Shown here piece after piece: positions 1,352 through 17,730 of a stretch of 45,601 nucleotides of DNA. Source of the DNA: a candidate division WOR-3 bacterium (GTDB taxonomy: Bacteria > SDB-A). The DNA lies in assembly GCA_016934535.1 (NCBI GenBank), contig JAFGSQ010000056.1, positions 62,001 to 107,601 of the forward strand, read 5' to 3'. The first letter of the stretch is position 1. The number at the start of each line of letters is the position of its first letter. The notes under the pieces are model-generated. The model had not been told where the DNA came from. It did not search any database and saw only the letters and a list, made by a program, of their open reading frames with translations. The position numbers and the translations under genes were made by a program.

Positions 1352-4300
1352 ATGAAAAATTCAATGAAGACAAGAAGGTTAGTCCCAAACATTGTCGAAG
1401 ATTTTTTCCTCAATAAAATACAGTTCAAAGAGTTTGAAGGAGCGGTTTTGTTCCTCGACATTTCCGGCTTCACTTCGACAACGGAAGAGCTGATGAAAAA
1501 CGGAAAAGAAGGCGCTGAGGTACTTTCAAAAATAATAAACGACGTCTTCACTCCGGCGATATCCGCCGTCGAAAGACATTCCGGGTTCGTCCCAGTTTTT
1601 GCAGGAGACGCGTTTTATGCCGTGTTTCCAGCCGGAAAGAAAATTAATAAATCCTCCACAGTGTCCGCTCTTTTAGCCGCCGGCGAGATTGTGAGTGAAT
1701 TCACCGGTTTGAATCCCGTCAAAACCAGGTTTGGAGATTTCGTTTTCTCGCCTAAAATCGCCCTATCGTCTGGTAAAATCATTTTTAAGACAATCGATTG
1801 CGGCGGACGGTACTTGTATTATTTTCAGGGAAAACCGTTTGACGAGACGGCTGAACTGCAAAAAAAATGTGGTGACAATGAAGTTTTGGCGAATACAAAA
1901 ATAAAAAAAGCCGTAAAAACTGACAAAAGATACAAGTTTATAAAGAAAACCGAAAATTTTTTTGCCGCGGATATTAGATTAAAAAAAAACAAAGAGCTGA
2001 AAAAACAGTCGAAAAAGATTTCGATCCGAATTGCAGAAAAATTCATTCCAAAGAGTGTTCTTTCCAAAAAAGAAACGGGTGAATTCAGGGACACAGTGGC
2101 GTGCTTCATTTCTCTGGAAAGAGTTAAAGACATTGATCAGGCAATAAAAAACGCCGTCGTCATTTCAGAGAAATTCGGTGGGTACATGAACAAAATAATC
2201 GCAGGCGACAAAGGGGTTGTAGCCCTGACTATTTTCGGCGCTCCGACGGCGGTCGAGAAACCTCTTGAAAAAGCCGTCAGATTCTCACTTGAGCTCAATT
2301 CGGTGTCAAAACGCTCTGTGAAGACGGGAATTTCCCGAGGAGTGACCTACGCTGGATTTGTCGGATCCCCGGATATGAGCGAATACACTGTGATGGGAAA
2401 AAGCGTCAACCTGGCGGCAAGATTGATGGTAAAAGGTAAAAAAGGGCAAATTCTGATTGATGAAAGAACAGCACAGGCGTTAACGGACAGATTCATTCTA
2501 AAGACTGAAGGAAAGCGGAAATTCAAAGGAATCAAGGAAAGAATGGATTTGTTTTCAGTTGATGAGGCGGGCAAAGAAGAAATCACGGGAAATTTTGACG
2601 ACCTTTTTGTAGGAAGAGAAAAGGAAAGAAATCAGATCATTGATGTTCTGAAAAAGACTTTGAAAGAAAAGGTCAACGGAGGAATGATTTTCATCGACGG
2701 AGAACCTGGCATGGGCAAGACCAGACTCGTGTCTGAAGTTCTGAACGAAGAGGAAATAAAAGATTCGTTCACGATTGTATTTTTATCATTTGAACCTTCG
2801 CAGAGTGAAAGCCTGTCGCCTTTCGTAAAATTTTTGAAAAACTACTTTTTCAGTGCAAAAAACGATTTCGACGCTGTTTTGAGTGAACTGGCTGAAAAAA
2901 CCGGAGACAGAGTTTTGAGGGAAGAGCTTTTGCGGGGAAGAGATTTTTTGGCTTACTTCACCGGTGTTGAAAAAGACTTGATCAATTACCCGGGAATCAA
3001 ACCCGAAAAAATAAGCGAAAATTTTTTTTACGCTTTTAAAGCGATGATCAAAGCGCTTTCTTCATTTAAGCCGATCATTTTGACCGTGGATGATTTTCAA
3101 TGGGTGGATGAAGATTCTATAGATCTTATGAGGGTGCTTTCGATAAACGTCGAAAAATTCCCTTATGTCTTTTTAGCTACCTGCAGATTGAAAGACGACG
3201 GTCAGGTCTTTGACCCGGAGACTGAATTTCCTGTTGTCAAAAGAATATTAATAGAACATTTCGGCGTAGAACTGACGGGAAAAATGCTTGAAAACACATG
3301 GAAGTCAGAAAAACTGCCCCAAAAGACTATTGAGTTTTTTCACGAAAAAACCGGTGGGAATCCGTTTTTTATAGAACAGTTCGCGCTTTATTTCATGGAA
3401 AATAAACTTTTAAGTCCAGATTTCAGCATAGCAGGCCAAACCGATGGTATTCCCTCTGATATAAATTCGGTCATAACAGCCAGATTCGACAGGCTGACGG
3501 ATGATTTGAAAGAAGCCATCAAAAACGCGTCTGTTCTCGGCAAGGAATTTGCCGTCGATGTTTTGTCCCGGATGCTGAGAAATAAAAGGATATCCCGCGA
3601 CCTAAGGTCGGGAGAAAACGAACAGATATGGACGAGGATTGAAAAAATTAGATACATGTTCAGGCACGTTCTCATAAGAGATTCAGTCTATCAAATGATA
3701 CTCAAAGAGAAACTGAGATCTCTTCATAACCTCGCAGGAAGCATAATCGAAGAGATATACGCCGAAGATATTTCAAGTCATTATGTCGAACTTATTGAGC
3801 ACTGGGACAGGGCTGAAAACGCCGATAGAGTTATTAAAACCGGGAGAGACGCCGTCAAACATGCCGCTGAAAAAGGTATGAAAAAAGACTCTCTGACCTG
3901 TTATGAAACTATGGACAGGTATTTGACCGGTTCGGAAAAGACTGTCAACAAAATACAGTGGGCGCAGACCCTTTATAATACTTCGAATTTCAAAAAAGCG
4001 ATTGCCGTGGCTGAGGAAGCTCTCATTGAAGCTGAAAAAGATCATGACAAAAAATCTCACAGTAGATTGGTCAATTTGATTTTCGAAGTGAAGCTTCACG
4101 TCGGAGACAGGGAAGAAATCAGAAGAAAGTTCGACGCATTAAAAGAGCTTCTGGAGAACACAGACGACCCTGTATCTCTGATCAACACTCTCGACAATAT
4201 TGCCATGTATCATCATCACTCCGGGTATGAAGAACAGGGTTATGTCTACGCAAAGAGGGCTTTGGAAGAGGCAGAAAAACTTGCAGATTCATCGGAGAAC

Positions 4301-5185
4301 AGACAGTATCTCAATATACTTGCAAAAAATTACAGCATAATATCCGTGTTTTTCGGAAGGGAAGTCGGCCTTGACAGGGTTTTTGAGTATCTGGACAGAG
4401 CTCTTAAAATCGCTGAAAGAATTGAAAGTAAACCCGCCAAGGCTGTTTTGTACGGTAATCTCGGTCTTTCATACATGGAGATAAAACTCGACGCGGATAA
4501 AGCCATGTTTAATTTTAAAAAAGCCCTGGAACTATACGAAGAATTCCAGGATAGAAACGGATCGGTGACGACACTTAACAACATGGCATTGATTGCTCTG
4601 CACAAAAAAGAATTAAAAAAGGCCGAAGAATTGTTCAGAAGAGCTCATTCAATATCGATTGAAATCGGAGACATTCCTGTACAAATACTCTGCCTTATCA
4701 ATTTGTGCAGTGTCGAGAGAAATAGGGGCAGGTACGATAAAGCTCTCGCGTTGCTGGACGAAGCAATTGAAAAAGTGAATAAATGCGGCAAAGACCTTTT
4801 TCTTGCGGAACATTACGACATCAGGTTTGGAATCAATATCCTGAAAAAGGACTATGAAGAAGCCGAAAAGAGCAACGAAGCCCTTCTTGCGATGCACGGA
4901 AAACTTAAAAATGATTATCTGCTTTTCAGGTATGAGATAAACTCAGCCGAATTGGTTTACGAGCGGGGTGACGCAGAAAACGCTGAAAAAAAACTGAATC
5001 AAATGCTCGAAAAATGGGGAAATACGATCCAAAAGGCGGAAATATTTTACTTGATGTGGAAAATCAAACGGACAAGCGAGTCCAGGCAAAGGGCTGCATA
5101 TCTATACAAAAAACTGATAGAAGAGGAAACCGGAGAGTACAAACAGCTGTCCTATATTGACAAGTATGAAGAATTGACTTCTTAG
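1352..5185 (+). CDS. Class III adenylate cyclase (tandem sAC-like C1/C2) - STAND/AAA ATPase - TPR protein
   Basis: C1 LFLDISGFT...FAGDA; C2 YMNKIIAGDKG...EYTVMGKSVNLAARLM; FVGREKE; Walker A GEPGMGKT; Walker B ILTVDDFQWVD; TGGNPFF (GxP); C-terminal TPR-like repeats (LYGNLGLSY, TLNNMALIAL, CLINLCSV). Confidence 0.9.
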   Translation: MKNSMKTRRLVPNIVEDFFLNKIQFKEFEGAVLFLDISGFTSTTEELMKNGKEGAEVLSKIINDVFTPAISAVERHSGFVPVFAGDAFYAVFPAGKKINKSSTVSALLAAGEIVSEFTGLNPVKTRFGDFVFSPKIALSSGKIIFKTIDCGGRYLYYFQGKPFDETAELQKKCGDNEVLANTKIKKAVKTDKRYKFIKKTENFFAADIRLKKNKELKKQSKKISIRIAEKFIPKSVLSKKETGEFRDTVACFISLERVKDIDQAIKNAVVISEKFGGYMNKIIAGDKGVVALTIFGAPTAVEKPLEKAVRFSLELNSVSKRSVKTGISRGVTYAGFVGSPDMSEYTVMGKSVNLAARLMVKGKKGQILIDERTAQALTDRFILKTEGKRKFKGIKERMDLFSVDEAGKEEITGNFDDLFVGREKERNQIIDVLKKTLKEKVNGGMIFIDGEPGMGKTRLVSEVLNEEEIKDSFTIVFLSFEPSQSESLSPFVKFLKNYFFSAKNDFDAVLSELAEKTGDRVLREELLRGRDFLAYFTGVEKDLINYPGIKPEKISENFFYAFKAMIKALSSFKPIILTVDDFQWVDEDSIDLMRVLSINVEKFPYVFLATCRLKDDGQVFDPETEFPVVKRILIEHFGVELTGKMLENTWKSEKLPQKTIEFFHEKTGGNPFFIEQFALYFMENKLLSPDFSIAGQTDGIPSDINSVITARFDRLTDDLKEAIKNASVLGKEFAVDVLSRMLRNKRISRDLRSGENEQIWTRIEKIRYMFRHVLIRDSVYQMILKEKLRSLHNLAGSIIEEIYAEDISSHYVELIEHWDRAENADRVIKTGRDAVKHAAEKGMKKDSLTCYETMDRYLTGSEKTVNKIQWAQTLYNTSNFKKAIAVAEEALIEAEKDHDKKSHSRLVNLIFEVKLHVGDREEIRRKFDALKELLENTDDPVSLINTLDNIAMYHHHSGYEEQGYVYAKRALEEAEKLADSSENRQYLNILAKNYSIISVFFGREVGLDRVFEYLDRALKIAERIESKPAKAVLYGNLGLSYMEIKLDADKAMFNFKKALELYEEFQDRNGSVTTLNNMALIALHKKELKKAEELFRRAHSISIEIGDIPVQILCLINLCSVERNRGRYDKALALLDEAIEKVNKCGKDLFLAEHYDIRFGINILKKDYEEAEKSNEALLAMHGKLKNDYLLFRYEINSAELVYERGDAENAEKKLNQMLEKWGNTIQKAEIFYLMWKIKRTSESRQRAAYLYKKLIEEETGEYKQLSYIDKYEELTS

Positions 5186-5190
5186 CTGGG

Positions 5191-5670
5191 TTAGTTCTTT
5201 TGACGGCGTTTTTGTAAAAAAATCAGGTCTGATAAAAAGGCGGCTGTCAAAACAGCAAAAATTGTAAATGTTTCGAGTCTAAAAAAACTTCCTTTGACTT
5301 CGGGAAGATTTTGAAACAGAACAATGAAAATTGTCTTTATGGGCTCAAACCAACTTTTTGCTTGGGTCAGAACGTCAATTCTTACAAGATAAAATACAGC
5401 GCAAGCCGCCACGGCCAAGAAATACAAGCAGTTCAACAGCCTTTCTTCGGTTTTGATCTTTTTTCTTCTTGCCGAAACGGCTTTGACCGTTTTGATTGTG
5501 AAGTCCCTAGGTATTTCAGTCCTCTCAGAAGAGAGGTGTTTGAAAAGAGTCTCGTATTCACTTAGTTTCTTTGAACAGGACGCGCAGTGGGAGAGATGGT
5601 CTGTCACAGATGCGTCTTTTTTCCCCCCGTCGAGAAATTCCTGAAAAATGTCTTCGTCAACATGCTTCAT
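5191..5670 (-). CDS. Zinc-binding (ZAS-type) membrane anti-sigma factor
   Basis: N-terminal H...FLDG...DHLSHCASC (HxxxCxxC), two TM segments, overlaps the 3' end of the ECF sigma gene. Confidence 0.8.
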   Translation of the reverse strand: MKHVDEDIFQEFLDGGKKDASVTDHLSHCASCSKKLSEYETLFKHLSSERTEIPRDFTIKTVKAVSARRKKIKTEERLLNCLYFLAVAACAVFYLVRIDVLTQAKSWFEPIKTIFIVLFQNLPEVKGSFFRLETFTIFAVLTAAFLSDLIFLQKRRQKN

Positions 5671-6253
5671 TTGCCGCCTCCTGCGTTCTTAATACCATAT
5701 CTTTCAGGTTTTTTCGAGCCCGGAATAGATAATTTTTTACCGTTCCTAAGGGCATCGATAAAGCGTAAGATATTTCTTCGTATGAAAAATTTTCCGTATG
5801 ATAAAGGGATATTATCTCTCTCTGGACAGGATGAAGCCTCTCCAGGCATTTTTCTACCAGCTGATTGCACTCCTCCCTTTGCCGGTTAAGAGAGGATTCT
5901 TTATGAGAATTTTGTAAGGACTTTTCATCCAAAAATATCTCTTCTTTTTCTCCAAAATTCATTTTGCTGAAAGATACGGTTTTTTTTCTTTTTTTAAGCA
6001 AGTTGCACGCGTGATTGTATGATATTTTCGCTATCCACGTAGAAAGTTTACAACCGTGTTTAAAAGAGCCGAGGTTTTCATAGATTTTTATGAATATTTC
6101 CTGACAAGCGTCCTCGAGATCGTCGCTGTCTTCAATCAGTTTTCCCGCGACGTGAAAGACCAGTTTTTTGTATGAATCAATGAAAAAAACGAGAGCTTCT
6201 TCGTCTCCCGACATTATTCGCCGGATTAATTCTTTTTCTTCTTTTTGATCCAT
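5657..6253 (-). CDS. ECF-family RNA polymerase sigma factor
   Basis: Region 2 EDACQEIFIKIY...LSTWIAKISYN; region 4 FSYEEISYALSMPLGTVKNYLFRARKNL. Confidence 0.95.
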   Translation of the reverse strand: MDQKEEKELIRRIMSGDEEALVFFIDSYKKLVFHVAGKLIEDSDDLEDACQEIFIKIYENLGSFKHGCKLSTWIAKISYNHACNLLKKRKKTVSFSKMNFGEKEEIFLDEKSLQNSHKESSLNRQREECNQLVEKCLERLHPVQREIISLYHTENFSYEEISYALSMPLGTVKNYLFRARKNLKDMVLRTQEAANEAC

Positions 6254-6368: not shown

Positions 6369-6695
6369 ATGAACGATTTTTTACCCATGGCTGTCTTTTT
6401 AGGAACGATTTACGGCATAGTGAAGCTGTCGATGGACTACAAAATAAAAAAGAGACTGATAGAAAAGGGAGACAACAATTTCGATCTCAACAGTTTGTCG
6501 AAAAACGGTCCCGGGTACGCAGTTCTTATGTGGGCGATGATCCTCATATCCCTGGCTGCTGCAATTTTGCTGGGATTTCTTTTCTTCCCTGAAATCAGGA
6601 TGGAAGCGACAAGCGCAATGATGCTCGGACTGAGCGGCTTCAGCATGATAGTGTATTTTGTCATAAGCAAGATTCTTGACAGAAAGAAAAAATAA
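6369..6695 (+). CDS. Small three-TM membrane protein (DUF6249-like), probable ECF target
   Basis: AAGGAGG RBS at 6355-6361 supports ATG 6369 over 6288. TM, then KIKKRLIEKG, then two TMs; divergent from the ECF sigma. Confidence 0.7.
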   Translation: MNDFLPMAVFLGTIYGIVKLSMDYKIKKRLIEKGDNNFDLNSLSKNGPGYAVLMWAMILISLAAAILLGFLFFPEIRMEATSAMMLGLSGFSMIVYFVISKILDRKKK

Positions 6696-6715
6696 TCCTC
6701 TGTTCCTGCCGTTTG

Positions 6716-6744
6716 ACCGGGGGTGAATCCCCCGGTTTTTTTTT
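6716..6744 (+). terminator. Rho-independent terminator
   Basis: ACCGGGGG-tgaat-CCCCCGGT stem followed by a T run, 20 nt after stop 6695. Confidence 0.9.
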
Positions 6745-6769
6745 GCCTGGATTCTGATAGAATATTCAG

Positions 6770-7696
6770 GTGACTAAAGATGAATTTCAGAAAACGGCCG
6801 ACTCTGTCGGACTTGTCAGCGATAATAAAAAAAATGGTACTTTCGAAATAATCCTCGACAAAATCGAAAGTATGAAAAAATACAATTCCGTGGAATGCCA
6901 TCTGGTTTTGTATCCTTATTCGGACGAAGTCTCGTCCAGGGATTTTGTATTTACTCCGTACGAGGAATACGTCCGCGACATTCTGGTCAAACAAAGATCT
7001 GCTTATGCTGAAATGACAGACAGGTTTGGAAATTTTTTCGGGCTTTTCCTCGGTGTTGTCATCATTGCAATTTTTGCGATATTCAAACCCGAAGATCTCC
7101 TGTCTGTCGAATCGCTGGTGTCGGTCATTGGCTCTTACCTCATAGGGAAAGAAATATGGGATGACATAGAAAACATTCTCATAAATCTCACGAAAAAAAT
7201 GACAGTCAGGATGGTCGAGAATTATTACAGATTTCAGCTCGAAAAGCATTCCACGCTGACGTTATATTCATTGTTCGCCAAAAAAAGAAGGTACGGAAGG
7301 GAGACCATCGTCCCGGAAAAGATAGATTTTATCCAACACAGCAATTCCCAGACCCTGAGGCTTTATTTTTCAAAAAAAGAGATAAGAAAGATACCCGGTT
7401 CTTCAGCCCTGATGGTAACTTTGTCCGTCACTCCCGACAAAATTACCGAATTTCTCGAAAAAGGCTGGCTTTTCGGAGTAAAACTGAGCCTGAACAAGAG
7501 TTTTATTTGTTTCAAGAAAAGTGTCGAACTTTTTCAATCCCTCGACGGCCAGAAGAAGGGATGCCTCGACGAGGCAGGCAATTGGCACGAGGGATCGGTT
7601 TTTAAAAGGAAAACTTTTACTTTTTGGAAGATCAAGGCTTTTTTGTCAAAAAAACTGACCGATGATTTCTCTCTTGTTTATTCGAAGAGTGAATAG
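6770..7696 (+). CDS. Hypothetical membrane-associated protein (308 aa)
   Basis: Long ORF filling the gap, GTG start, central hydrophobic hairpin (FFGLFLGVVIIAIFAIF...LVSVIGSYLIG); no recognisable family motif. Confidence 0.7.
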   Translation: MTKDEFQKTADSVGLVSDNKKNGTFEIILDKIESMKKYNSVECHLVLYPYSDEVSSRDFVFTPYEEYVRDILVKQRSAYAEMTDRFGNFFGLFLGVVIIAIFAIFKPEDLLSVESLVSVIGSYLIGKEIWDDIENILINLTKKMTVRMVENYYRFQLEKHSTLTLYSLFAKKRRYGRETIVPEKIDFIQHSNSQTLRLYFSKKEIRKIPGSSALMVTLSVTPDKITEFLEKGWLFGVKLSLNKSFICFKKSVELFQSLDGQKKGCLDEAGNWHEGSVFKRKTFTFWKIKAFLSKKLTDDFSLVYSKSE

Positions 7697-7714
7697 ACGG
7701 TTTTTTGATTTATA

Positions 7715-10678
7715 TCAGTAATTATTACCTGAAAAAACCGCTCCGGATCCGTTTCTGCCGTCCATGAGGACGGTCAATCCTTCGGGGAATTCCACGTGGG
7801 CGCAATATTCTTTTGCACAGGTAATATTCTTCTTTTTGATGATATCCCAGTTTATGAAATCTTTTTCGCTGTTGTAAGGAACTGTCAGATAACCTATGTT
7901 GAGAGTGGTAATGTTGTGAAAAAAATGAGAACCCAGCGAAGGATCTATCTGAAAATCCTTTGTTCCGTATTCGACTATCGTTCTGGCGCCTGAAATCTGG
8001 TTCCATTTGACAGGTATCCCCAGGAACCTGTCGCTCGTCCCCCATCTTCCAGGGCCTATCAGGAGATAAGGCTTTTTCGCGTCTTTTAGCTTCTGATTGA
8101 AGTGTTCTACTTCTTCGGCGATTTTGAGCGTTTCCATCTTTTTGAACTTTTCGGGAAAAACGAAAACTACGTCTTTTATTCCTTCCACTTTGCCGTTTCC
8201 CAGGGTTTGTGTTGTCGATATGAAAACGTTTTTACCTTCGAGCTCCGAGGAGTCAATTTCGTAATTGTCGAAATTTCTTATGAAAGGCTTGAGCTGGAGA
8301 ATGTAAAAAACGGGTTTTTTACCGAGTTCGACCGCGAATTCAATTTCAACGGGTGTTCCGAGAGCGGTTTTAAAGACTGCGAGAAGTTTTTGAAGAACGT
8401 CAGAAAGTGGAAAAGATTCGTATTTCAATATGTTTGCAAAATTTATTATTCTCGGTCCATCGGTTCCCAGGTATCCGGAAAACCTGTTGTTCTGCCAGTC
8501 CCAGACTGAAGCAACATCTTTCAGAGCGCCGTCTTTTTCAGCGTCTTCGAGGGAGGATTTTACAAGGGTGATGTCTTCGCCGAGAGAAAGATCGAAATCG
8601 CTTTTTCCCATATCGAGCGCCCAGAAATAGGTCTGTGAATTTTTAAGCTGGTCGTCAGATGAATAAAAGTCGATTTTTGGGTGCTTGGGGCAGAACCTGA
8701 AAGCCCTGTCGCCGTCTACGACGTATGTTCCAAGGCCAAGAGCAACGACCGCGATGCCGTCTTCCGGTTTTATATAGGAAACAGGATAGTAATTGTATGA
8801 CTGGGCGACTCCGGAAAATGACGGATAAAACCTTCCGTTAACCGAATTTCCGACCAGTTTCTGTATGACAACAGCCATTTTTTCTTCTTCTATGTTGTAG
8901 CCGATGGATTCGAAATAGGTCTTGGCGACCTTGGAATAAACCGAAGAGTAAACAAGTTTTACAGCGTCCGTGAACTGCTTGTATCTGATCTCGAAATTGT
9001 AATTGGAGTTTGGTATTATGTATGTCTCGTAAATGCCTGAAAAGGGGTGGGATATCGAGTCTTCGAAAACCGCTGTAGATCTGACTGCGAGAGGATGGTT
9101 GATTTTCTGAAGAAGTATCCTGAATTTTTTTTCGAGATCCTCAGGAAGCGAAGAAGAAAGAAATTTTTGTTTGATTTTTTCATGGTCGTCCTCTTCAATG
9201 GCAAATTCCAGAAGGTCGTTTTTTTCGATGAACTGGTCGAATGAATCCGTACCGACCAGGTATGTTTTCGGTATTCTGATGCTTGCACCCTGCACTGAGT
9301 TTTCAAGAGCGCTGTTTTGAAGAAGTGAACTGATAAAAGCGATTCCCCTTCCTTTGCCTCCGAGTGCTCCCGCCGAAAGCCTCACAATGCTGTCTCCTTC
9401 GGTGAGGTATTTGTCGTCGAAATTGATTATTTTTCCCTTCGATTTTTTGTATTCTACAAGCTTTGTCATATTGGACAAATGGAACTTGATTTCTCTGGGG
9501 CTTTCAAAATCGACTGTTTTCATCCTGCGCAAGCTTTCGGCAATTTTAAATTCGCCTCTGGCAGCGAACCATGTCGAAAAATCATTTCTTTCGAAATGGT
9601 AAAAAATGGAATCTTCGGGTATTTTTTCTATTTTTTTCTCGAAATCGTCCAAATTGAGAGCTTCGTCGAGAATATCACCCGTATCATTCTTGAACAAAAA
9701 AGGGCCGAAACCGAGTTCATTTTTGATGAAATCTCTGACCTGGGTTGAGAGCCGGTCAGAATTTTTGTCAATAAAAGAAACTTTCAAATCTTTCGCTTTT
9801 TCTGCCGTCGAGGGTTCCGAAGATTGAAGAAGAGCTATGAGGTCGGGAGAAGTTTTCCTGAATTCTTCGATCAAGGAAATGCCTGCCGATTCGTCCAGAA
9901 AACCTTCTTTGGGAAAACGGCGGTCCGTAATAAGGCACATCAGGTAATTTTTGAAATTGGTAAAAATTGTCCGGGCTTCCTCGAAATTCATGGCGAGGAG
10001 GACCTTGGGCCGGGTCTTGTATCTTGTTATCTTTCTCGTTTCGTCGAATTTCTCTTCGGTTATCAGAGTGTGTGTCTGTTTTATTATTTCACGGTACAGA
10101 AGCGGAAGATATTTTGAATAATAGACCGGCGAGTCTTCGACAAGAAGGATTATCCTGACAGAAGCGAGAGAGGTGTCGTTTAAAGCGTTTTTATAATCTT
10201 CGACATATTTGCTCATCGCCAGGAATATTTTCGCGTCGCCGTTCCAGATGAAAATCTTGTCTATGGCGCTTGGTCTGTCTTTCCACTGTTCGACGATCTT
10301 TATGTCGGAATTGTCGTTTAACAGAAGAAACACCGGCAAATCGGGATCTAATTCCCTTATTGAAAGACTGGTTTCGTAAGGTTGAAAGTCGTCTATTCTC
10401 ATTGTCAGTATTACAAGATCGATTTTTTTTTCTTTTATCGCCTGAACAGCTTTTTCCTTGGAATAGACAGAAGTTATTCTCGGCGCGTCCGCCAGGCTGA
10501 TTTTGAAATACTCTTCGAACAGCATGTCACTGAGAAGTCCTTCTTCTTCAAGAATATAAGAATCGTACAACGTCGCGACGAGTAGAATTTCTCTTATCTT
10601 GAAAGGAGAAAGTCCACGGTTTATGTCGGAGCTTATCCTGAGATTTTCCTCGTATTGAGTGAGTTCAAAGTCTGACAT
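7715..10678 (-). CDS. Receiver-domain-containing PEP synthase/PPDK-like ATP-grasp protein (no C-terminal pyruvate-binding barrel)
   Basis: REC-like EILLVATLYD and IILLVEDSP...LITD...LQSS...IDK; helical linker SIFYHFERNDFSTWF; ATP-grasp LGGKGRG, LAVRSTAVFED, MAVVIQKLVG, PVEIEFA, ILQLKP; C-terminal GPGRWG...GSHFFHN. Confidence 0.85.
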   Translation of the reverse strand: MSDFELTQYEENLRISSDINRGLSPFKIREILLVATLYDSYILEEEGLLSDMLFEEYFKISLADAPRITSVYSKEKAVQAIKEKKIDLVILTMRIDDFQPYETSLSIRELDPDLPVFLLLNDNSDIKIVEQWKDRPSAIDKIFIWNGDAKIFLAMSKYVEDYKNALNDTSLASVRIILLVEDSPVYYSKYLPLLYREIIKQTHTLITEEKFDETRKITRYKTRPKVLLAMNFEEARTIFTNFKNYLMCLITDRRFPKEGFLDESAGISLIEEFRKTSPDLIALLQSSEPSTAEKAKDLKVSFIDKNSDRLSTQVRDFIKNELGFGPFLFKNDTGDILDEALNLDDFEKKIEKIPEDSIFYHFERNDFSTWFAARGEFKIAESLRRMKTVDFESPREIKFHLSNMTKLVEYKKSKGKIINFDDKYLTEGDSIVRLSAGALGGKGRGIAFISSLLQNSALENSVQGASIRIPKTYLVGTDSFDQFIEKNDLLEFAIEEDDHEKIKQKFLSSSLPEDLEKKFRILLQKINHPLAVRSTAVFEDSISHPFSGIYETYIIPNSNYNFEIRYKQFTDAVKLVYSSVYSKVAKTYFESIGYNIEEEKMAVVIQKLVGNSVNGRFYPSFSGVAQSYNYYPVSYIKPEDGIAVVALGLGTYVVDGDRAFRFCPKHPKIDFYSSDDQLKNSQTYFWALDMGKSDFDLSLGEDITLVKSSLEDAEKDGALKDVASVWDWQNNRFSGYLGTDGPRIINFANILKYESFPLSDVLQKLLAVFKTALGTPVEIEFAVELGKKPVFYILQLKPFIRNFDNYEIDSSELEGKNVFISTTQTLGNGKVEGIKDVVFVFPEKFKKMETLKIAEEVEHFNQKLKDAKKPYLLIGPGRWGTSDRFLGIPVKWNQISGARTIVEYGTKDFQIDPSLGSHFFHNITTLNIGYLTVPYNSEKDFINWDIIKKKNITCAKEYCAHVEFPEGLTVLMDGRNGSGAVFSGNNY

Positions 10679-13013
10679 CGGTATCGATTCCGTTTAGTTT
10701 TAAAAAACCAATTGCGTAAGAAGAATCGCCATCCATGACTATTTCGCCTGAATAACCTTTGGCCTGTTCTTCAATGTCAATAACCCTTATCACGCTTTCG
10801 AAGAGCTCTTTTTTTCCAGGAGAGAGATTGACGAGTGAAGAAAGACTGTTTTTTGATAAAGTGAAAAAATCATTGTTGAAAACAGAGTTCTCGTCGTCCG
10901 GGTAAAGTGGGAGGTATTTTATCTGTGATTCGACCAGATCCTGGAAAAAATGGGTTCCGAAAGACAGCTCCGGCATGTATCCTTTTTTCTGTTTTGCTAT
11001 TTCGATGAGCATGGCGGTGTTGTTTATGTCGCTGTACGTCACTCTGACGCCGAGTTTGATATCACCCCTGCTTCCCCATCTTCCGGGTCCGGCCAAAATA
11101 AATTTCTTTTTGGGTAGTTCCGAGTTGAGCTGTGAAACTATTTTTCCCACAGTGATCAGATCGTTGAGCTCTTCCATGGAGTCGTATGCGAAAGGGTCTA
11201 TGAAAACTATGTACCGGATGTCTTTTACGAGTGCGTTGGTGACATATTTTTTAGCCGTGAAAAGAATTTTGTCCCGAGGTATGTCGCGCGGCATTGATAC
11301 CGAAATTATCTCTTTTGAATGACTCTGAGGTCTGCACTGGAGCAGGTAAAACTTCTCGGTTGCGGCGTTGAATGCAAATTCGATGTCAACAGGATAACCG
11401 AGAGCTCTCTTGAGAACATCGAGTATCGTTTTAATATAGTTTATGAACCTGCCTTTTTTTATCAAATTCGCAAAGGTGATTACAGGTTCGCCTTTTGAGA
11501 GATCGACGAGGCTTCCGACAGACTGGTGAAGCTGTCCGTCTGAAAACAACGAAACTATGTCGGGCAATCCCGGCAGATTTGTTCCTGCGTCTTCAATGAG
11601 TTTTTCGAGTGATATGGATTCGAATTTTCTGGTCTCGAGGTTAATGACGTCAATGTATTTTTGTGAATAATGGAAGGATTCTTCGGGAGTGGAGTTGACT
11701 TTCAAGCCCGGTTGGCCTGGACACAAAAGAAGGGGATAGTCGTCACCAAGCCTGTCGACGGCTCTGGTTCCGAGTCCCGCGACGAGCCTTATTATTCCGT
11801 CGTCCTTTTTTATCCTCGGCGACCATCTGAACTCGTTGTCTGTGAAGGCTACACCGGCGAAAGCCGGAAGATAGTACTTGCCGATTTTTGTGCCGACGAC
11901 TTCCTGAATCATCAAAGCCATTTCTTCGTTGAAATCCAGCAGGCCGTTCTCTCTCCTGTATTCTATGACGTCCGGGCTGAATACGCTGGAGTAAACTTCC
12001 TCTATTGCATCTATGAGAGCTTCCAGCCTCTCTTTCTTTGTCCCCTGGTTGGAAACGAAAAGGCTTTTGTATTTTCCTGCGAATGCAGCTTCGGGGCTGT
12101 CTTCGAGAAGACTCGACGAGCGGACTATAATTGGGGAATCTCCGAAATCGTCAAGAGCAACGCTGAACATCGAAATGAATTCGAGTGGCATTATCGAGTT
12201 TTTAAAAATCTGTTCGATGTAGGGATACTCTTTCCTGATCTCAAGCGGGTCGTGGTACTTTATCCTCTGGAATTCTTCAAGAGCGTTGGAATGAAGAAAT
12301 TCAAAAATGCCGTCTGAAGTTATGAACCATGTCTTGGGAGTCTGGATTTCACCGAGCACGCTGAATTCTTCGGACTTGCTTTTGAGTATCTGTTTCGCCC
12401 TTATCATTCCCGCGGCTTTTCCTCCCAGTTTGCCGTTGCCTTTCGACGGGCCAATGGTTTTGTTGAGGATGTCAATGAAGTCATCGATTGTAATGTGGTC
12501 CTTAAGAGTGTTTATGTAAGACAGATTGTTGCTCAAAAATCTTCTTATCAGAGCCACCCTCACTCCCAGTCTGTCTTCCTGAGTCAGAGCGTCTTTCAGG
12601 TGAGGCTGTTTGGAAAAAGTGTACAAGGCGTTGTGAATCTCATCGAAAGCGACGTCTCTTTTCTCAGCTGATTTCATAAGGAAATTCAGGTTCTCATTTT
12701 TTATCCACATCCTTATCACATTTGTAATTTCTTCATCTCCGATTTCATCTTCGGCAATTTTAAAGACTTCTCCTATCATTTTTTCCAGAGTTTGTGTGTT
12801 TATTCGCGGATGGGGTTGATTGTCGTCCAGGCTTTCCTCGAAATCGAACATAGTCACGGATTTGTCTATGTTAAGGACTATGTTTTCAATTTTCGTAATG
12901 TCTTTTTTAAACAGGTAGTTCATCATTCTTCTGCCGAGCCTCTTGTACAGCACAGGATTCGCCTCTTCGAGAAGATCTATTATTATTCTCCACTCAGGTT
13001 TATTTGAGGACAT
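10665..13013 (-). CDS. PEP synthase/PPDK-like ATP-grasp protein (no C-terminal pyruvate-binding barrel)
   Basis: LGGKAAGM, IIVRSSSLLED...FAGKYKS, MALMIQEVVG, PVDIEFAF, LLQCRPQ; C-terminal GPGRWG...GTHFFQD; ~185-aa N-terminal extension. Confidence 0.85.
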   Translation of the reverse strand: MSSNKPEWRIIIDLLEEANPVLYKRLGRRMMNYLFKKDITKIENIVLNIDKSVTMFDFEESLDDNQPHPRINTQTLEKMIGEVFKIAEDEIGDEEITNVIRMWIKNENLNFLMKSAEKRDVAFDEIHNALYTFSKQPHLKDALTQEDRLGVRVALIRRFLSNNLSYINTLKDHITIDDFIDILNKTIGPSKGNGKLGGKAAGMIRAKQILKSKSEEFSVLGEIQTPKTWFITSDGIFEFLHSNALEEFQRIKYHDPLEIRKEYPYIEQIFKNSIMPLEFISMFSVALDDFGDSPIIVRSSSLLEDSPEAAFAGKYKSLFVSNQGTKKERLEALIDAIEEVYSSVFSPDVIEYRRENGLLDFNEEMALMIQEVVGTKIGKYYLPAFAGVAFTDNEFRWSPRIKKDDGIIRLVAGLGTRAVDRLGDDYPLLLCPGQPGLKVNSTPEESFHYSQKYIDVINLETRKFESISLEKLIEDAGTNLPGLPDIVSLFSDGQLHQSVGSLVDLSKGEPVITFANLIKKGRFINYIKTILDVLKRALGYPVDIEFAFNAATEKFYLLQCRPQSHSKEIISVSMPRDIPRDKILFTAKKYVTNALVKDIRYIVFIDPFAYDSMEELNDLITVGKIVSQLNSELPKKKFILAGPGRWGSRGDIKLGVRVTYSDINNTAMLIEIAKQKKGYMPELSFGTHFFQDLVESQIKYLPLYPDDENSVFNNDFFTLSKNSLSSLVNLSPGKKELFESVIRVIDIEEQAKGYSGEIVMDGDSSYAIGFLKLNGIDTDVRL

Positions 13014-13031
13014 TGTTCACTCCGTGTTGAG

Positions 13032-13060
13032 AAAAAACAGGGGCGGAAAATATCCGCCCC
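13032..13060 (-). terminator. Intrinsic terminator/hairpin after gdh
   Basis: Minus strand GGGGCGGA-tattt-TCCGCCCC then TGTTTTTT, 10 nt after the gdh stop. Confidence 0.75.
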
Positions 13061-13070
13061 AAAAATTGGA

Positions 13071-14357
13071 TCAGACCCAGCCTCTCACCCTGCATGATTC
13101 GGCGACTCTTTGGACAGAAATCATGTAGGCGGCGTCTCTCATGTATAAATTCTGTTTTTTGGCAAGGTCGGCTACGGCGCGGTATGCCGCTGTCATTTTC
13201 GTGTCCAGGTTTTTGAGAACTTCTTCTTTAGTCCAGAAATAGTTCATGTTGCATTGAACCTGCTCGAAGTAACTGCAGGTCACTCCGCCTGCATTGGCCA
13301 GAAAATCAGGCACGATGTATATGTTTTTTTCTTTCATATATTTGTCTGCTTCAGGAGTAGTGGGTCCGTTGGCTCCTTCCGCAATGAGTTTGACTGAAGG
13401 TTTGATCTTTGCGACATTGTCACCGGTTATCTGGTTTTCGAGGGCCGCAGGGACAAGTATTTCAGCTTCCTGTTCGAGCCATGCCTCTCCGGGAAGGACT
13501 TCATAGCCGAGAGATTTGGCTTTTTCCTTGTTAATCCCTCCGAATCTGTCCGTAATGTCACGCAGTTCATCTATGTCGAATCCCTTTGTTTTCTTGAATG
13601 AATAAGAGGTCTGATCTTCCTGATCCCAGCAGGAGACACAAACAGGCGTTCCTCCGTATTCGACGTACAGACGGATTGCGTACTGGCTGACGTTGCCGAA
13701 TCCCTGGAATGAAGCTCTCGTTTTTTTTATGTCGAGACCGAGATCCTTGAGGGCTTCCCTGACAGTGTACATAACGCCGTATCCGGTGGCTTCCGTTCTG
13801 CCGAGAGAGCCTCCTACGCCGACAGGTTTGCCGGTTATCATGCCTGGATATTTTCCGGAATGAATTCTCTCGTATTCGTCGAGCATCCATATCATGTGCT
13901 GACCGGAGGTCATCACGTCAGGAGCCGGCACATCCTGCAGAGGACCTATTTCGTATGATATCTGCCTGACCCATCCTCTGCAAATACCTTCCTGTTCTCT
14001 TTCTGAAAGATGATGCGGGTCACAAATAACTCCCCCTTTTCCCCCTCCGAGAGGAATGTCCACAACCGAACACTTCCATGTCATCCACATCGCCAGAGCT
14101 CTCACAGTGTCGAGCGTTTCAAGCGGGTGAAACCTGATTCCGCCTTTACAAGGTCCTCTCGAATCGTTGTGCTGGACTCTGAACCCTCTGAAAACCTTGA
14201 CCGAACCGTCGTCCATCCTTACCGGGATGCTGAATGAATATTCTCTCAGGGGAGTGCGCAGCAAGTCCCTTGTGGCTTGATCTAAACCGAGTTTTTCGGC
14301 CGTGTTGTCGAATTGCTGCTGAGCCATTTTGTACGCGTTGAAAGACTTTTCAGACAC
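13071..14357 (-). CDS. gdhA: Glutamate dehydrogenase (Glu/Leu/Phe/Val dehydrogenase family)
   Basis: GFRVQHN, KGGIRF, MTWK, GGGKGG, DVPAPDV, GRTEATGYG, QGFGNV, EGANGP, ANAGGVTCSYFE. Start placed at GTG 14357, 5 nt after GGAGG (14363-14367). Confidence 0.93.
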   Translation of the reverse strand: MSEKSFNAYKMAQQQFDNTAEKLGLDQATRDLLRTPLREYSFSIPVRMDDGSVKVFRGFRVQHNDSRGPCKGGIRFHPLETLDTVRALAMWMTWKCSVVDIPLGGGKGGVICDPHHLSEREQEGICRGWVRQISYEIGPLQDVPAPDVMTSGQHMIWMLDEYERIHSGKYPGMITGKPVGVGGSLGRTEATGYGVMYTVREALKDLGLDIKKTRASFQGFGNVSQYAIRLYVEYGGTPVCVSCWDQEDQTSYSFKKTKGFDIDELRDITDRFGGINKEKAKSLGYEVLPGEAWLEQEAEILVPAALENQITGDNVAKIKPSVKLIAEGANGPTTPEADKYMKEKNIYIVPDFLANAGGVTCSYFEQVQCNMNYFWTKEEVLKNLDTKMTAAYRAVADLAKKQNLYMRDAAYMISVQRVAESCRVRGWV

Positions 14358-14520
14358 AAACACCTCCTAAAAAAGTTAAAAATAAATATGCAGATTATGC
14401 AATTTTATGATATTTTGTCGAATAAGTTAATAGGAATAGAAATTTTTAAAAGATTAAATATTTCCGGAATAGTATTTTAAATTATGTGTGTAACTTACAG
14501 TATACCGGGAGAAGTGAATA

Positions 14521-14955: not shown

Positions 14956-15622
14956 AATGTTTCGGATTAAAACCCCTTTTCTCGCCGTTTTCGACATGGA
15001 CGGAACGCTTTACAGATCCGATGCTTCGTTTATTCCCGCCGTAAAATCTCTTCTTTCGAACAACGGCTTAGAAGTACCGGCCGACGATTTCCTGTTTTCT
15101 TTCATTGGGGAGCCCGACAGCGTTTTTATTGATTGGCTGGCGAAATTATCTTCAAACGGAAACGCTGACTCTCTTTACAATGAATTTCAAAGAAGCGAAT
15201 TGAACATGGTAAGAGAAAGGGGAGAATTGTATGACGGAGTCCTCTCTCTTCTTGACTGGCTCAAAGAAAACGGTTTCACATTGGCCGTTTGTTCAAACGC
15301 TACAAAAGTTTATATTGATACGGTACTGGAGAAGTTCAGACTAACCGAACTATTTTCGGCAGTGAGAGTCCCTGCGGGTTCTGAAAGCAAAAAAAAGATG
15401 CTGAAAGAAATCAGTGATCAGTTTTCTCCGGAAATAGGTTTTATGGTGGGAGACAGGATTCACGATATGCAGGCGGCTTTTGAAAACGGATTTGCATTTA
15501 TCGGAGCTCTTTACGGTTTCGGAAGGAAAGAGATAGAGACAGCCGAAAATTGTGCTGAAAGCCCGTTTGAGATTAAGCCTATTTTTGAAAAAAGACTTTC
15601 AGATGCAAAACTTCAGATCTGA
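14948..15622 (+). CDS. HAD-family phosphatase
   Basis: FDMDGTL, VCSNA, MVGDRIHD; ATG 14948 overlaps the GNAT end. Confidence 0.9.
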   Translation: MSEMFRIKTPFLAVFDMDGTLYRSDASFIPAVKSLLSNNGLEVPADDFLFSFIGEPDSVFIDWLAKLSSNGNADSLYNEFQRSELNMVRERGELYDGVLSLLDWLKENGFTLAVCSNATKVYIDTVLEKFRLTELFSAVRVPAGSESKKKMLKEISDQFSPEIGFMVGDRIHDMQAAFENGFAFIGALYGFGRKEIETAENCAESPFEIKPIFEKRLSDAKLQI

Positions 15623-16312
15623 ATCTTCAATTTTGAATACGGTTTCTTTCTTGCCTGCGTCAAACCACATTGATCCATCATCTTCCTGAAAGCCTATTTT
15701 TCCACGGAATGGTTTTGACAAATAGAAGTCGATAATCGAAAAAGGAAGCTTGGGACAGGCGTGAAAAAAAATCGATGAACTTACGCATTGAATACCTGAA
15801 AATGCGTAAGTTCTGTACCCGGGATTTGAATACTTGCTGGAAGATGTCTTTCTTTTAAGAAGGAATCCGTTTTCGTCGAACAGAAGATGCCTCATTGTGT
15901 CGCGTTTTTTCACGGACAGTGTAGCCAGGTTTGATGAACCGGCGTGATAATCGTAAAGAGAAAGCAGGTTCGTGTCTGATATGATGTCGACATTGTGGAC
16001 GAGGAATTGCTTGGAATCTTTAAAAAAATTTCTGGCATTGAAAATACCTCCTCCCGTACCCAATGGGAAACTCTCTTCTCTATAGAAGGATATCTCGGCC
16101 CCGAAAAATTTTTTGGACTCAGCGTATGAGATCACGTCGTCGGCGAAATGATGGACGTTTACTGCAATTTCTTTGAAACCCTGGCTGACGAGCTTGCGAG
16201 CGACGATTTCAATCAAAGGAATACCTTTGATTCTGACGAGAGCTTTTGGAGTATTTCGCGTCATCGGCATCAGTCTTTTACCGAATCCTGCGGCGAGAAT
16301 CATTGCCTTCAC
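15599..16312 (-). CDS. Sugar-phosphate nucleotidyltransferase (MurU-like)
   Basis: KAMILAAGFGKRLMPMT..TPKAL, LGTGGG, VHNVDI, AFSGIQ, WFDAG; GTG 16312 in a GTGA overlap with the upstream stop. Confidence 0.85.
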   Translation of the reverse strand: MKAMILAAGFGKRLMPMTRNTPKALVRIKGIPLIEIVARKLVSQGFKEIAVNVHHFADDVISYAESKKFFGAEISFYREESFPLGTGGGIFNARNFFKDSKQFLVHNVDIISDTNLLSLYDYHAGSSNLATLSVKKRDTMRHLLFDENGFLLKRKTSSSKYSNPGYRTYAFSGIQCVSSSIFFHACPKLPFSIIDFYLSKPFRGKIGFQEDDGSMWFDAGKKETVFKIEDSDLKFCI

Positions 16313-17730
16313 TTGAAATCCGTTTCGAGGTGAGATATCTGGACAAATACTTTTTTGTCGCCTTTTAGGAGGTCTTTCAGTTTTTCTGCGCAGTAGACTG
16401 ATCTGTGCTTTCCTCCGGTGCACCCGAAATACACGTCGAGCTGTTCAAAGTTTCGTTCTATGTAGTTTTCCAGAGCCCCGTCCACCGTTTTTTTCATGTT
16501 GGCGATAAAAGATGAAACCCCTGGATCCTTGTCGAGGAAAAGGGCGACTTCAACGTCTTTGCCTGTCAAAGATGCAAGTCCGGCTTCTCTTCCGGGGTTG
16601 ATCAGATGCCTGCAATCGAAAACGAACCCCCCTCCGTGAACTCCAAGGTCCCGAGGTATCCCTTTTTTGTATGAAAAACTCTTTATCCTGACCGTGAGTT
16701 TGCCCTTTTCAAGAGAAGGCGTGAGCCCGGCTATCTTTTCGAGAGATTCATTCAGGGATTCTTCTACGGCGGGAAATAATCCGGAACGAATTTCACGGAT
16801 TATTTCCAGGGCGTTTTCTACGGCTTCACCGACACAGTTTTTAAAAGAAGCGTTCTGCCCGTGATAGCCTCTCAAACCGTAAGCACCCAAGTTTTGAAGT
16901 ATTCTGAGAAGAGCGCACAAAAAAAAGTTTTCCAAAAAACAGGGAGAAGATGAGAAAGGTCTTATTTGGTCTGTATGTGAATAGAAATCAAAAAGCTGTT
17001 TTCGTTCGCTTTTTTTCAAGCTGGCTCTTGTCTGAAATATAAGGGAAGCGGCGTCGTACAGAAGGGGTCCATTCCGGCCGCCGGTGAAGTCTAATACGTA
17101 TATTTTTTCGTTTTTGAATATTATGTTTCTCGATTGAAAATCCCTGTGCACGAAAGCTCGTTGCGGAATTTTGTTTACCAGAGAAGACATGAGTGAAAAT
17201 TCTTTTTCGAGTCGCGGTTCGTCGAAAGTAACTTCGAAAAGCTTAAGAAAACAGTATTTAAAGTAATAAAGATCCCACAGCACTGAATGCCTGCTGAATT
17301 TATTTATCGGCCGGCACATTTTGTAATCAATTTTTTTATCAACTTCCGTCTGCATCAGAGCGAGAAATTCGAGAGCCTTTTTGTACAGCGACATTGTTTT
17401 GGCGTTTAAATGATGAGAATCGGTTTTTTTTGACAATGACAGGAGTGATTCTTCACCGGCGTCTTCGCAAAGAAATATTCGTCCGGTTCTGTCTTCTATG
17501 TATATTTCGGGGACGCTGACAGAGGAATCCTTCAAAACTCCCGTCAGATAGGAAAAAACATTCCCTTCATTTTTGCTCTTAAAATACTGGCAAAAAGCCG
17601 CTTGGTCGCCTCTTTTTATTCTGGCGAACAACTTGGATGAGTCGGTGGAGCTGAAAAAGGAAAATTCTTCGGCTTCGGCGCCGAAGTGCTTCTTAAAAAG
17701 CGAAGAGGCTTCAGATCTGAAGTTTGTCAA
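16309..17730 (-). CDS. AmgK-like aminoglycoside-phosphotransferase-fold kinase fused to a RapZ C-terminal domain
   Basis: HRDFQSRNI, LDFTGGRNGPLLYDAASL, LQNLGAYG; C-terminal SFSYKKGIP...FVFDCRHLINP...FGCTGGKHRSV. Confidence 0.85.
   Translation of the reverse strand: MTNFRSEASSLFKKHFGAEAEEFSFFSSTDSSKLFARIKRGDQAAFCQYFKSKNEGNVFSYLTGVLKDSSVSVPEIYIEDRTGRIFLCEDAGEESLLSLSKKTDSHHLNAKTMSLYKKALEFLALMQTEVDKKIDYKMCRPINKFSRHSVLWDLYYFKYCFLKLFEVTFDEPRLEKEFSLMSSLVNKIPQRAFVHRDFQSRNIIFKNEKIYVLDFTGGRNGPLLYDAASLIFQTRASLKKSERKQLFDFYSHTDQIRPFSSSPCFLENFFLCALLRILQNLGAYGLRGYHGQNASFKNCVGEAVENALEIIREIRSGLFPAVEESLNESLEKIAGLTPSLEKGKLTVRIKSFSYKKGIPRDLGVHGGGFVFDCRHLINPGREAGLASLTGKDVEVALFLDKDPGVSSFIANMKKTVDGALENYIERNFEQLDVYFGCTGGKHRSVYCAEKLKDLLKGDKKVFVQISHLETDFK

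Follow-up and report, generated by a model that had tools for sequence, protein, structure and literature searches.

In a 45,601-nt stretch of DNA from a candidate division WOR-3 bacterium (contig JAFGSQ010000056.1, positions 62,001 to 107,601; hereafter the window), the glutamate dehydrogenase gene gdh is followed by two genes for paralogous dikinase-like proteins, here called A and B, and this pair accompanies one clade of glutamate dehydrogenase (GDH) across many bacterial lineages. GDH stands at the junction of carbon and nitrogen metabolism. Both proteins join an ATP-grasp domain of the kind used by phosphoenolpyruvate (PEP) synthase and pyruvate phosphate dikinase (PPDK) to a C-terminal domain with an invariant histidine, and neither contains the PEP/pyruvate-binding barrel. 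Our favored interpretation, which we hold tentatively and with somewhat less than even confidence, is that A and B are the two subunits of a signal-controlled phosphotransfer enzyme of the dikinase type, dedicated to the neighboring GDH.

A and B are paralogous ATP-grasp proteins and not PEP synthases

The three genes lie in one direction on the minus strand and together fill positions 7715..14363 of the window, which is located on contig C71 of a 2.23-Mb assembly of 76 contigs. A (10665..13013, ATG at 13013) encodes 782 amino acids and B (7715..10678) encodes 987, and the two genes overlap by 14 nt, with the TGA stop codon of A at 10667..10665 and the ATG of B at 10678..10676. The proteins are 31% identical over 535 aligned positions (E 9e-55), the similarity running from the ATP-grasp domain through to a shared C-terminal domain, and by this alignment A and B are paralogs. 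The initial annotation, a reading of the bare sequence, had described gdh followed by two co-directional, overlapping ATP-grasp paralogs, and the open reading frames (ORFs), the identity and the stop and start positions agree with that description.

PPDK_N (PF01326) is the only enzyme domain that Pfam finds in either protein, and nearly the whole profile is covered in each: the dikinase-type ATP-grasp domain of A (residues 195-572; 11298..12431, minus strand) matches with an E-value of 1e-54 over profile positions 3-318 of 328, and that of B (residues 438-801; 8276..9367, minus strand) with 2e-37. In A it is preceded by an all-helical domain (residues 1-194; 12432..13013, minus strand) that is specific to the A family and belongs to no known family, containing only helices in an AlphaFold2 (AF2) model (residues 7-184), having no Pfam match and showing no relation to the DUF5752 region of B (hhalign probability 0.8%). 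The AF2 model of full-length A (mean predicted local distance difference test score, pLDDT, 76; predicted template modeling score, pTM, 0.74) consists of three parts, the helical N-terminal domain, the ATP-grasp domain and the C-terminal domain, and its top Foldseek matches are rifampin phosphotransferase (RPH; 5hv1, E 1.4e-11), PEP synthase (2ols) and HpeI (9goj), followed by PPDKs. The invariant residues R298 and S317 of A align with R117 and T136 of RPH in a profile alignment, and in the alignment of A with B their places are occupied by R533 and T552 of B, which are also invariant. In RPH, R117 and T136 bind the alpha-phosphate, and mutation of either abolishes rifampin resistance (PMC4844700). 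Because these alpha-phosphate residues are kept in A and B, both ATP sites look intact.

The other parts of a PEP synthase are missing. Neither A nor B matches the barrel (PF02896) or the classical phosphohistidine swivel domain (PF00391), and in 35 A homologs PF00391 finds no match, even with the threshold relaxed to E<=0.1. In the whole genome, PF02896 is confined to two enzyme-I-like genes and one complete PPDK, encoded on contig C45; PF00391 matches the same set. The NCBIfam equivalog models for PEP synthase give about 50-62 bits (A 61.7 at best, B 53-61) with cut-offs of 598-883, the RPH model NF041857 gives 40.6 (A) and 30 bits (B) with a cut-off of 999, and the PigC model gives 44 (A) and 68.5 bits (B) with a cut-off of 1300. 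No substrate domain of the RIF-binding or HpeH type was detected in A or B, and in A the C-terminal domain starts right after the ATP-grasp domain (residues 572/573), leaving no large substrate-binding domain between them. We conclude that A and B are not PEP synthases, as the initial annotation had held from the lack of a barrel in both; since the defining domains of the PEP synthase/PPDK, RPH/PigC and HpeHI families were tested and not found, the pair lies outside all three. Homologs are automatically annotated as 'pyruvate, water dikinase' or 'PEP/pyruvate-binding domain-containing protein', as would suit a true PEP synthase or PPDK whose barrel is encoded in trans, but the genome has no free barrel, the equivalog scores are far under their cut-offs and a full PPDK is already encoded on C45, so that this explanation is essentially excluded.

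As a separate observation on the enzyme-I-like genes, the two copies on contigs C72 and C33 of the assembly (G000) stand with kinase and receiver neighbors at near-identical coordinates, a sign that this part of the assembly is duplicated or varies between strains (contamination figure 3.92%).

The pair accompanies one clade of glutamate dehydrogenase

The gdh gene (13071..14357, minus strand; 428 amino acids) encodes a GDH of the module-linked clade, termed GDH1. The protein matches ELFV_dehydrog_N (E 6e-53) and ELFV_dehydrog (E 6e-71), its best solved relatives are the hexameric GDHs of Thermococcus and Pyrococcus (full-length alignment, ~405-410 bits), and residues K71, K95, G104-G105-K107-G108 and D147, which we take to be the conserved lysine- and glycine-rich catalytic motifs, are invariant in the GDH alignment. 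Because the best NCBIfam equivalog, GdhA_Arch, scores 464 bits, under its cut-off of 750, the gene is named here at the level of the ELFV family only, without substrate or cofactor.

A scan at one genome per species yielded at least 533 confirmed relatives of A and 80 loci that were kept. By the submitters' labels these come from a dozen or more phyla, with carriers in WOR-3, Riflebacteria, Fermentibacteria, Caldisericota, Aminicenantes, Calditrichota, Ignavibacteria, Chloroflexota, Bacteroidota and Syntrophomonas and with one cultured organism, Syntrophomonas zehnderi OL-4, and A homologs are 50-60% identical across phyla. Counting as GDH1 any protein with at least 500 bits to the window GDH, we found the clade in 53 of the 80 loci and in 49 of the 59 that have at least 3.5 kb upstream of A. 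Every one of these 53 gdh genes has a PPDK_N paralog nearby, at a distance of no more than 400 nt in 48 and no more than 2.5 kb in 5, and among the ORFs at positions 1-22000 of the window only gdh, A and B recur in the 80 loci. In a set of 41 related genomes, eight have a GDH with at least 69% identity and A adjoins it in all eight, as it does in a ninth genome, where the GDH is a contig-end fragment; 13 related genomes whose top GDH shares 39-47% identity lack an A homolog. Linkage to gdh is thus strong and conserved in many lineages, and the neighborhood that the initial annotation mentioned for other anaerobes, and put forward for a survey, is real. In the literature outside subscription journals, we found no paper on the A/B family or on its link to gdh.

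Comparison of the linked clade with the 13 unlinked GDHs revealed 34 conserved positions that differ, among them the clade-specific residues H115, H154, Y193, W244, K279, Y285 and W293, and three short insertions in the dinucleotide-binding half (residues ~244-249, 279-282 and near 325). These residues and insertions could form a docking or modification surface, though any clade has such residues.

A second GDH type, ~35% identical and 455-500 amino acids long, has a paralog directly adjacent in 11 of 15 cases, namely A in six, a receiver-bearing B in two and a third type of 850-880 amino acids in three; in this genome it is encoded on contig C46, with no paralog neighbor. A paralog of its own for the second GDH type fits partner-specific recognition better than a shared small substrate. 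The third paralog type (843-867 amino acids, ~400 bits to the A core, no A-type N-terminal domain) was seen directly downstream of the second GDH in loci L034, L038, L045 and L078. Another variant of the module, locus L129 (G023:C145, 1418..6610), encodes in one direction a GDH 48% identical to that of the window, an NrpR-type repressor (HTH_12 + NRD1_2) and an 878-amino-acid PPDK_N paralog, and thereby holds a member of a 2-oxoglutarate-sensing regulator family inside the module.

The shared C-terminal domain is probably a diverged relative of phosphoryl-carrier domains

The C-terminal domains of A (residues 573-782; 10668..11297, minus strand) and B (residues 802-987; 7718..8275, minus strand) belong to the same family (hhalign probability 99.7%). 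An alignment of 24 A-type and 25 B-type domains revealed 12 invariant positions (in A numbering N630, G644, R645, G647, D651, G655, E671, S684, H688, F689, F690 and Y700), which form a GPGRWG[ST]..D loop and an S-x-G-[ST]-H-F-F motif (GPGRWGS and G-T-H-F-F in A). The histidine, His688 in A (codon 10950..10952) and His918 in B (codon 7925..7927), is invariant in 49 of 49 sequences. In a library of 1.84 billion proteins, the profile of the domain matches 2437 clusters at E<=0.001, and PPDK_N precedes the domain in all 11 of the longer matches scanned. Against PDB sequences the profile gave nothing usable (best E 0.086, the glycine loop of KtrA), and the C-terminal part of an A homolog stored in the ESM Atlas matched only fragments of its own family.

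Modeled alone with AF2, the C-terminal domain of A reaches a pLDDT of 92.7 and a pTM of 0.90; His688 is the second residue of a helix, at its N-terminal end, and the invariant residues are located in loops after two beta strands. Comparison of this model with 48,161 representative chains by VIA-align gave a top group tied at Z 5.2, among which are the phosphoryl-carrier domain of PPDK (2fm4; root-mean-square deviation, rmsd, 3.7, with 117 of its 128 residues aligned), residues 759-867 of RPH, its swivel domain (5hv1; rmsd 3.2, 102 aligned), and the PEP-utilizer-like C-terminal domain of a pyruvate kinase (2e28 475-582), with enzyme I (Z 4.7) and maize PPDK (385-518, Z 4.6) lower down. Much of the remaining list consists of RraA, LeuD, aconitase-X, chaperonin apical, transferrin-receptor apical and CPS small-subunit domains, which SCOP groups with the phosphohistidine domain in the 'swivelling beta/beta/alpha' fold. 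Realignment of the Foldseek candidates again gave RPH 759-867 first (Z 5.6, rmsd 3.3, 105 aligned); the tool warns that a Z below 8 can reflect a common arrangement and calls values of 5.2-5.6 'middling'. From the domain model, the C-terminal domain is probably a strongly diverged, enlarged relative of the phosphoryl-carrier domain. Of the ATP-grasp/histidine pair invoked by the initial annotation, the dikinase-type ATP-grasp half stands, and the histidine half is weakly supported by the invariant residue and these fold matches.

The same residues bear on the idea that A-B is an ATP-sensing allosteric partner, which would bind GDH without any phosphotransfer and whose ATP-grasp and C-terminal domains would only sense ligands or act as a scaffold. 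Allosteric control by nucleotides is common among GDHs, and the absence of the classical phosphohistidine motif and the low confidence of the histidine region in the full-length model of A would both suit such a role. We nevertheless consider it improbable, for the alpha-phosphate-binding residues are invariant in both paralogs, and the invariance of His, Arg, Asp and Glu in the C-terminal domains of two paralog families points to chemistry rather than mere binding.

Receivers and interchangeable regulatory modules

The N-terminal part of B holds two domains related to each other (hhalign probability 74.9%, E 2.6e-5). REC1 (residues ~25-165; 10184..10606, minus strand) is a degenerate receiver-like domain, in which Thr92 replaces the acceptor (34 of 40 homologs have Thr here and none has Asp) and the acidic-pair, Ser/Thr and Lys positions are altered as well. 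REC2 (residues ~166-312; 9743..10183, minus strand) has E181, D182, D252 (codon 9923..9925), S286 and K305, of which D182 is conserved in 32 of 40 homologs and the other four in 40 of 40, and is by these residues a canonical receiver with a full acceptor site. The linker that follows (9368..9742, minus strand) matches DUF5752 (Pfam match at residues 284-404), a domain that occurs in this genome in B only and for which the literature search returned no paper mentioning it. The Response_reg match of the window B is below threshold (25.7 vs a Pfam cut-off of 30.2 bits); among B homologs, Response_reg is found in 40 of 40 at E<=0.001 and DUF5752 in 35 of 40. The two receiver-like domains reported by the initial annotation are thus both present, and only REC2 is canonical. 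Two other B-type proteins, P0271 (1524 amino acids) and P0291 (1557 amino acids), carry an extra N-terminal ~770-970 residues without a Pfam match ahead of the receiver, DUF5752, PPDK_N and C-terminal domains.

The layout in the window, with an A that lacks an extension and a B that has receivers, is a minority. Most frequent are the arrangements gdh-short B-A (18 loci), gdh-A (17) and A by itself (15, for the most part on short contigs), in which B is a bare core of ~590 amino acids and A has ~1065, with an N-terminal extension and a C-terminal MNT-type nucleotidyltransferase. A receiver-bearing B is found in only 13 of the 80 loci, and layouts without any receiver dominate; of the 21 loci with an extension-less A, 8 have such a B as their only B partner, as against none of the 51 with an extended A. 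A short B and a long A are also found naturally fused (P0243, P0244, P0245 and P0286), in proteins that contain both PPDK_N and the C-terminal domain twice. Because the regulatory module sits on either subunit in a complementary manner, this distribution argues that A and B work together, a conclusion that the 14-nt gene overlap and the fusions would also support. And because the receiver alternates with the nucleotidyltransferase extension as regulatory part, it argues that the receiver is an input device. Sensor modules that can be exchanged in this way, a receiver or an N-terminal extension plus nucleotidyltransferase, suggest that the system is regulatory in character.

No histidine kinase was found among the 35 window ORFs scanned, none of the 28 HATPase_c matches in the genome (~25 of them strong) is on contig C71, and tblastn of 25 kinase regions of the genome against the window gave no match, in line with the initial annotation. 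The genome contains about as many receivers as kinase-type ATPases, on other contigs, and several of the kinases are hybrid or orphan. In other genomes, TPR-PAS-HATPase_c sensor kinase genes are located directly upstream of a B-type gene (L061 and L068) and a hybrid kinase adjoins gdh (L014). In the single-chromosome genome G042, none among the kinase matches listed falls within the locus, a result given no weight here. These results bear on the central proposal of the initial annotation, a phosphorelay free of histidine kinases in which the histidine of A or B would pass its phosphoryl group to Asp252 of the B receiver as the main output. REC2 keeps every acceptor-site residue, the histidine-bearing domain is within the same protein as the receiver, and neither window nor contig encodes a kinase; yet most systems have no receiver at all, sensor kinases adjoin B-type and gdh genes elsewhere, the ~25 kinase-type ATPases of this genome include several hybrid or orphan ones, and the receiver swaps with the nucleotidyltransferase extension as an input domain would. 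We regard such a relay as very unlikely: it is unnecessary and cannot be the core mechanism, and transfer from the histidine to Asp252 in B itself may occur.

The accessory modules are also relevant to whether A-B acts on, or is controlled by, another component of nitrogen control, such as PII, glutamine synthetase or an NrpR-type repressor, and is merely co-regulated with gdh. GlnE and GlnD belong to the same enzyme class as the MNT-type nucleotidyltransferase found on the long A forms. An NrpR-type protein is encoded between GDH and paralog in G023, and the GDH1 clade is absent from G016, G036 and G040, which have B-type paralogs. Against this, no window ORF from positions 1-22000 other than gdh, A and B recurs in the 80 loci, and the GDH1 clade and A co-occur in eight of eight cases among the 41 related genomes; we assign this explanation a low probability, close to that of the allosteric partner.

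Gene starts, intergenic elements and related strains

The gdh ORF extends from the first GTG over 13071..14363 (430 amino acids), and the in-frame GTG at 14357, which is preceded by the ribosome-binding site AGGAGG, is the likelier start. Upstream of gdh, a promoter-like site at 14394..14421 (minus strand; TCGACA, a 16-nt spacer and CATAAT, with 10 of 12 consensus matches) is a consensus match only, with no evidence of function. Between the gdh stop and the start of A lies a terminator-like hairpin (13040..13060, minus strand), which begins eleven bases past the gdh stop and consists of 8 pairs (7 of them G-C) followed by a T run. Five of the six genomes examined have a hairpin at this place, the one in G005 showing compensatory changes and the one in G009 having an unrelated sequence, which suggests that most gdh transcripts would end ahead of A. 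Because such a hairpin follows gdh in five of the six genomes, A-B would be expected to be expressed far below gdh. Taken with the interchangeable sensor modules and with the NrpR-type regulator between GDH and paralog in G023, the hairpin may be read as a sign that A-B acts as a regulator and not in stoichiometric amounts.

An ORF without a known family converges on the 3' side of B, and 19 nt separate its end from that of B (7715). Two metatranscriptome runs of one study gave only a few short contig pieces at 90-95% likeness, which is too sparse to read expression. In a wastewater metagenome (run X2), a 36-kb contig spans the gdh-A-B stretch at ~95% identity, with 351 differences in 6901 bases against window positions 7600..14500; the two indels listed, at 14377 and 14447, are both in the intergenic region upstream of gdh, and the comparison is consistent with intact gdh, A and B genes in a related strain. 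The PADLOC defense models gave no match to gdh, A or B.

Comparison with known systems

By analogy, A-B would work most like VadK (Rv1127c) of Mycobacterium tuberculosis, described as a barrel-less PPDK relative that autophosphorylates on histidine and interacts with methylcitrate-cycle enzymes (PMC13400623). Both combine a dikinase ATP domain with a histidine-bearing domain in the absence of a PEP/pyruvate barrel, and for both a regulatory tie to enzymes of central metabolism, and not PEP synthesis, is proposed. The histidine of VadK was located by overlay on a canonical PPDK, whereas A and B have no detectable PF00391 and carry an enlarged, unclassified domain instead; in addition, A and B are a paralog pair with receiver or nucleotidyltransferase modules, and their partner GDH is proposed from gene linkage alone.

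RPH (RPH-Lm; 5hv1, 5fbu) is the closest structural match of the A ATP-grasp domain (Foldseek), shares with A and B the conserved alpha-phosphate residues R117/T136 and a histidine-bearing domain that is C-terminal rather than central, and provides with its swivel domain 759-867 the top structural match of the A C-terminal domain. It differs in that A and B lack a RIF-binding-type substrate domain, that their histidine domain has no sequence similarity to that of RPH, and that they add a helical N-terminal domain (A) and receivers (B). HpeHI and phenylphosphate synthase resemble the pair in that the dikinase function is split over two side-by-side genes, and HpeI (9goj) is among the best matches of the A ATP-grasp domain. 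There, however, the ATP-grasp is on one subunit and the substrate and swivel domains are on the other (PMC12167813), while A and B each have an ATP-grasp and a C-terminal domain, and no phenolic-substrate domain is found in A or B. PEP synthase and PPDK share the PPDK_N ATP-grasp domain and differ in PF00391 and PF02896, which A and B lack, and in equivalog scores, which for A and B are far under the cut-offs.

The main rival to our favored interpretation is that A-B is a small-molecule dikinase, phosphorylating a metabolite of the GDH node, such as 2-oxoglutarate, glutamate or a nicotinamide cofactor, and converting ATP to AMP and Pi. RPH, PigC, phenylphosphate synthase and HpeHI act in this manner on their substrates, two-component dikinases exist, and of the barrel-less relatives compared, the characterized ones other than VadK, namely RPH (PMC4844700) and HpeHI (PMC12167813), act on small molecules. 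Linkage to gdh would then fit a shared pathway, and the 50-60% identity of A across phyla is of a kind often seen in metabolic enzymes. Several features of the pair speak against this reading, which we judge unlikely: substrate domains like those of RPH and HpeH were not detected, and the RPH and PigC models, with cut-offs of 999-1300, reach 30-69 bits; modules such as receivers, sensors and nucleotidyltransferases are typical of signaling proteins; each GDH type has its own paralog, though one enzyme suffices for one metabolite; and a terminator-like hairpin separates gdh from A.

GlnE and GlnD for nitrogen enzymes and AceK for isocitrate dehydrogenase provide covalent control by dedicated modifying enzymes in response to nutritional signals. 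Their likeness to A-B is a functional analogy only, in the idea of a dedicated modifier encoded near or with a central enzyme and in the Pol-beta-superfamily nucleotidyltransferase on the long A forms; the core domains are not homologous, the A of the window has no nucleotidyltransferase, and modification of GDH by A-B is only proposed.

Neighboring genes in the window

Beyond the module, the gene at 1352..5185 (plus strand) encodes a large signaling protein of 1277 amino acids, with an adenylate/guanylate cyclase catalytic domain, an AAA_16 ATPase and MalT-like TPR repeats, and is followed at 5657..6253 (minus strand) by a gene for an ECF-type sigma factor. A strong terminator-like hairpin (6715..6737, plus strand; 9 pairs, 7 of them G-C, and T7) stands behind a 135-amino-acid ORF with a weak DUF6249 match, and the putative ORFs at 6437..7249 (minus strand) and 6770..7696 (plus strand), neither of them in a known family, overlap on opposite strands. 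On the other side of gdh, at 15599..17730 (minus strand), a 473-amino-acid fusion of an APH-type phosphotransferase with a RapZ C-terminal domain is encoded by a gene that overlaps a nucleotidyl transferase gene, and the two may be a sugar-1-phosphate kinase/nucleotidyltransferase pair with an unusual RapZ_C fusion.

Discussion

In the mechanism that we propose, the ATP-grasp domain of each protein would bind ATP, as in PEP synthase and rifampin phosphotransferase, and would load a phosphoryl group on the invariant histidine (His688 of A, His918 of B) of the diverged, enlarged, swivel-like carrier domain. With A and B together in one complex, the carrier would hand the phosphoryl group on to a GDH-linked target, GDH itself being the likeliest, and would thus act as a covalent on/off or tuning switch, the direction of the effect being conjectural. 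Where B has receivers, REC2 would serve as input, with a conventional histidine kinase encoded elsewhere setting the activity of A-B. To our knowledge, no dedicated covalent control system for GDH has been described in bacteria.

Several results weigh against this mechanism. Ten of the 59 loci with sufficient upstream sequence lack the GDH1 clade (two have the second GDH type and one a GDH fragment), G036 has a B-type paralog and no GDH match at E<=1e-20, and in G016, also with a B-type paralog, the sole GDH is on another contig; none of 69 longer GDH homologs is a GDH-dikinase fusion, which is in itself weak evidence. The linkage to gdh would fit equally well if the substrate were a small molecule from glutamate/2-oxoglutarate metabolism. 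Compared with 23 true PF00391 domains of related genomes, the C-terminal domain reaches an hhalign probability of at most 1%, no better than the receiver used as negative control, its model has no Foldseek match in the PDB at E<=0.001, and its fold matches go no higher than the middling Z values given above. Known swivel domains have a T/S-x-x-G-G-x-x-x-H motif (PMC12167813), which is absent from the C-terminal domain, the local motif being S-x-G-[ST]-H. In the full-length model of A, residues 645-690, which include the invariant loop and the histidine, have a pLDDT below 50 and a different secondary structure, and because of this low confidence the assignment of a carrier fold rests on the domain-only model.

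A broader claim, which we offer as possible and consider doubtful, is that A-B would be the first phosphohistidine-carrier enzyme derived from dikinases that covalently switches GDH, and hence a control layer widespread in anaerobic and uncultured bacteria that has gone unrecognized, built on a new, enlarged swivel carrier and wired to two-component signaling here or to a sensor/nucleotidyltransferase module elsewhere. What accompanies one particular GDH clade is a highly conserved enzyme pair. If A-B does modify GDH, it would be a metabolic switch of a new kind and would define, within the PEP-utilizing dikinase superfamily, a new branch with a new carrier domain, and thousands of 'PEP synthase / pyruvate, water dikinase' annotations, which now distort metabolic reconstructions of uncultured anaerobes, would be corrected.

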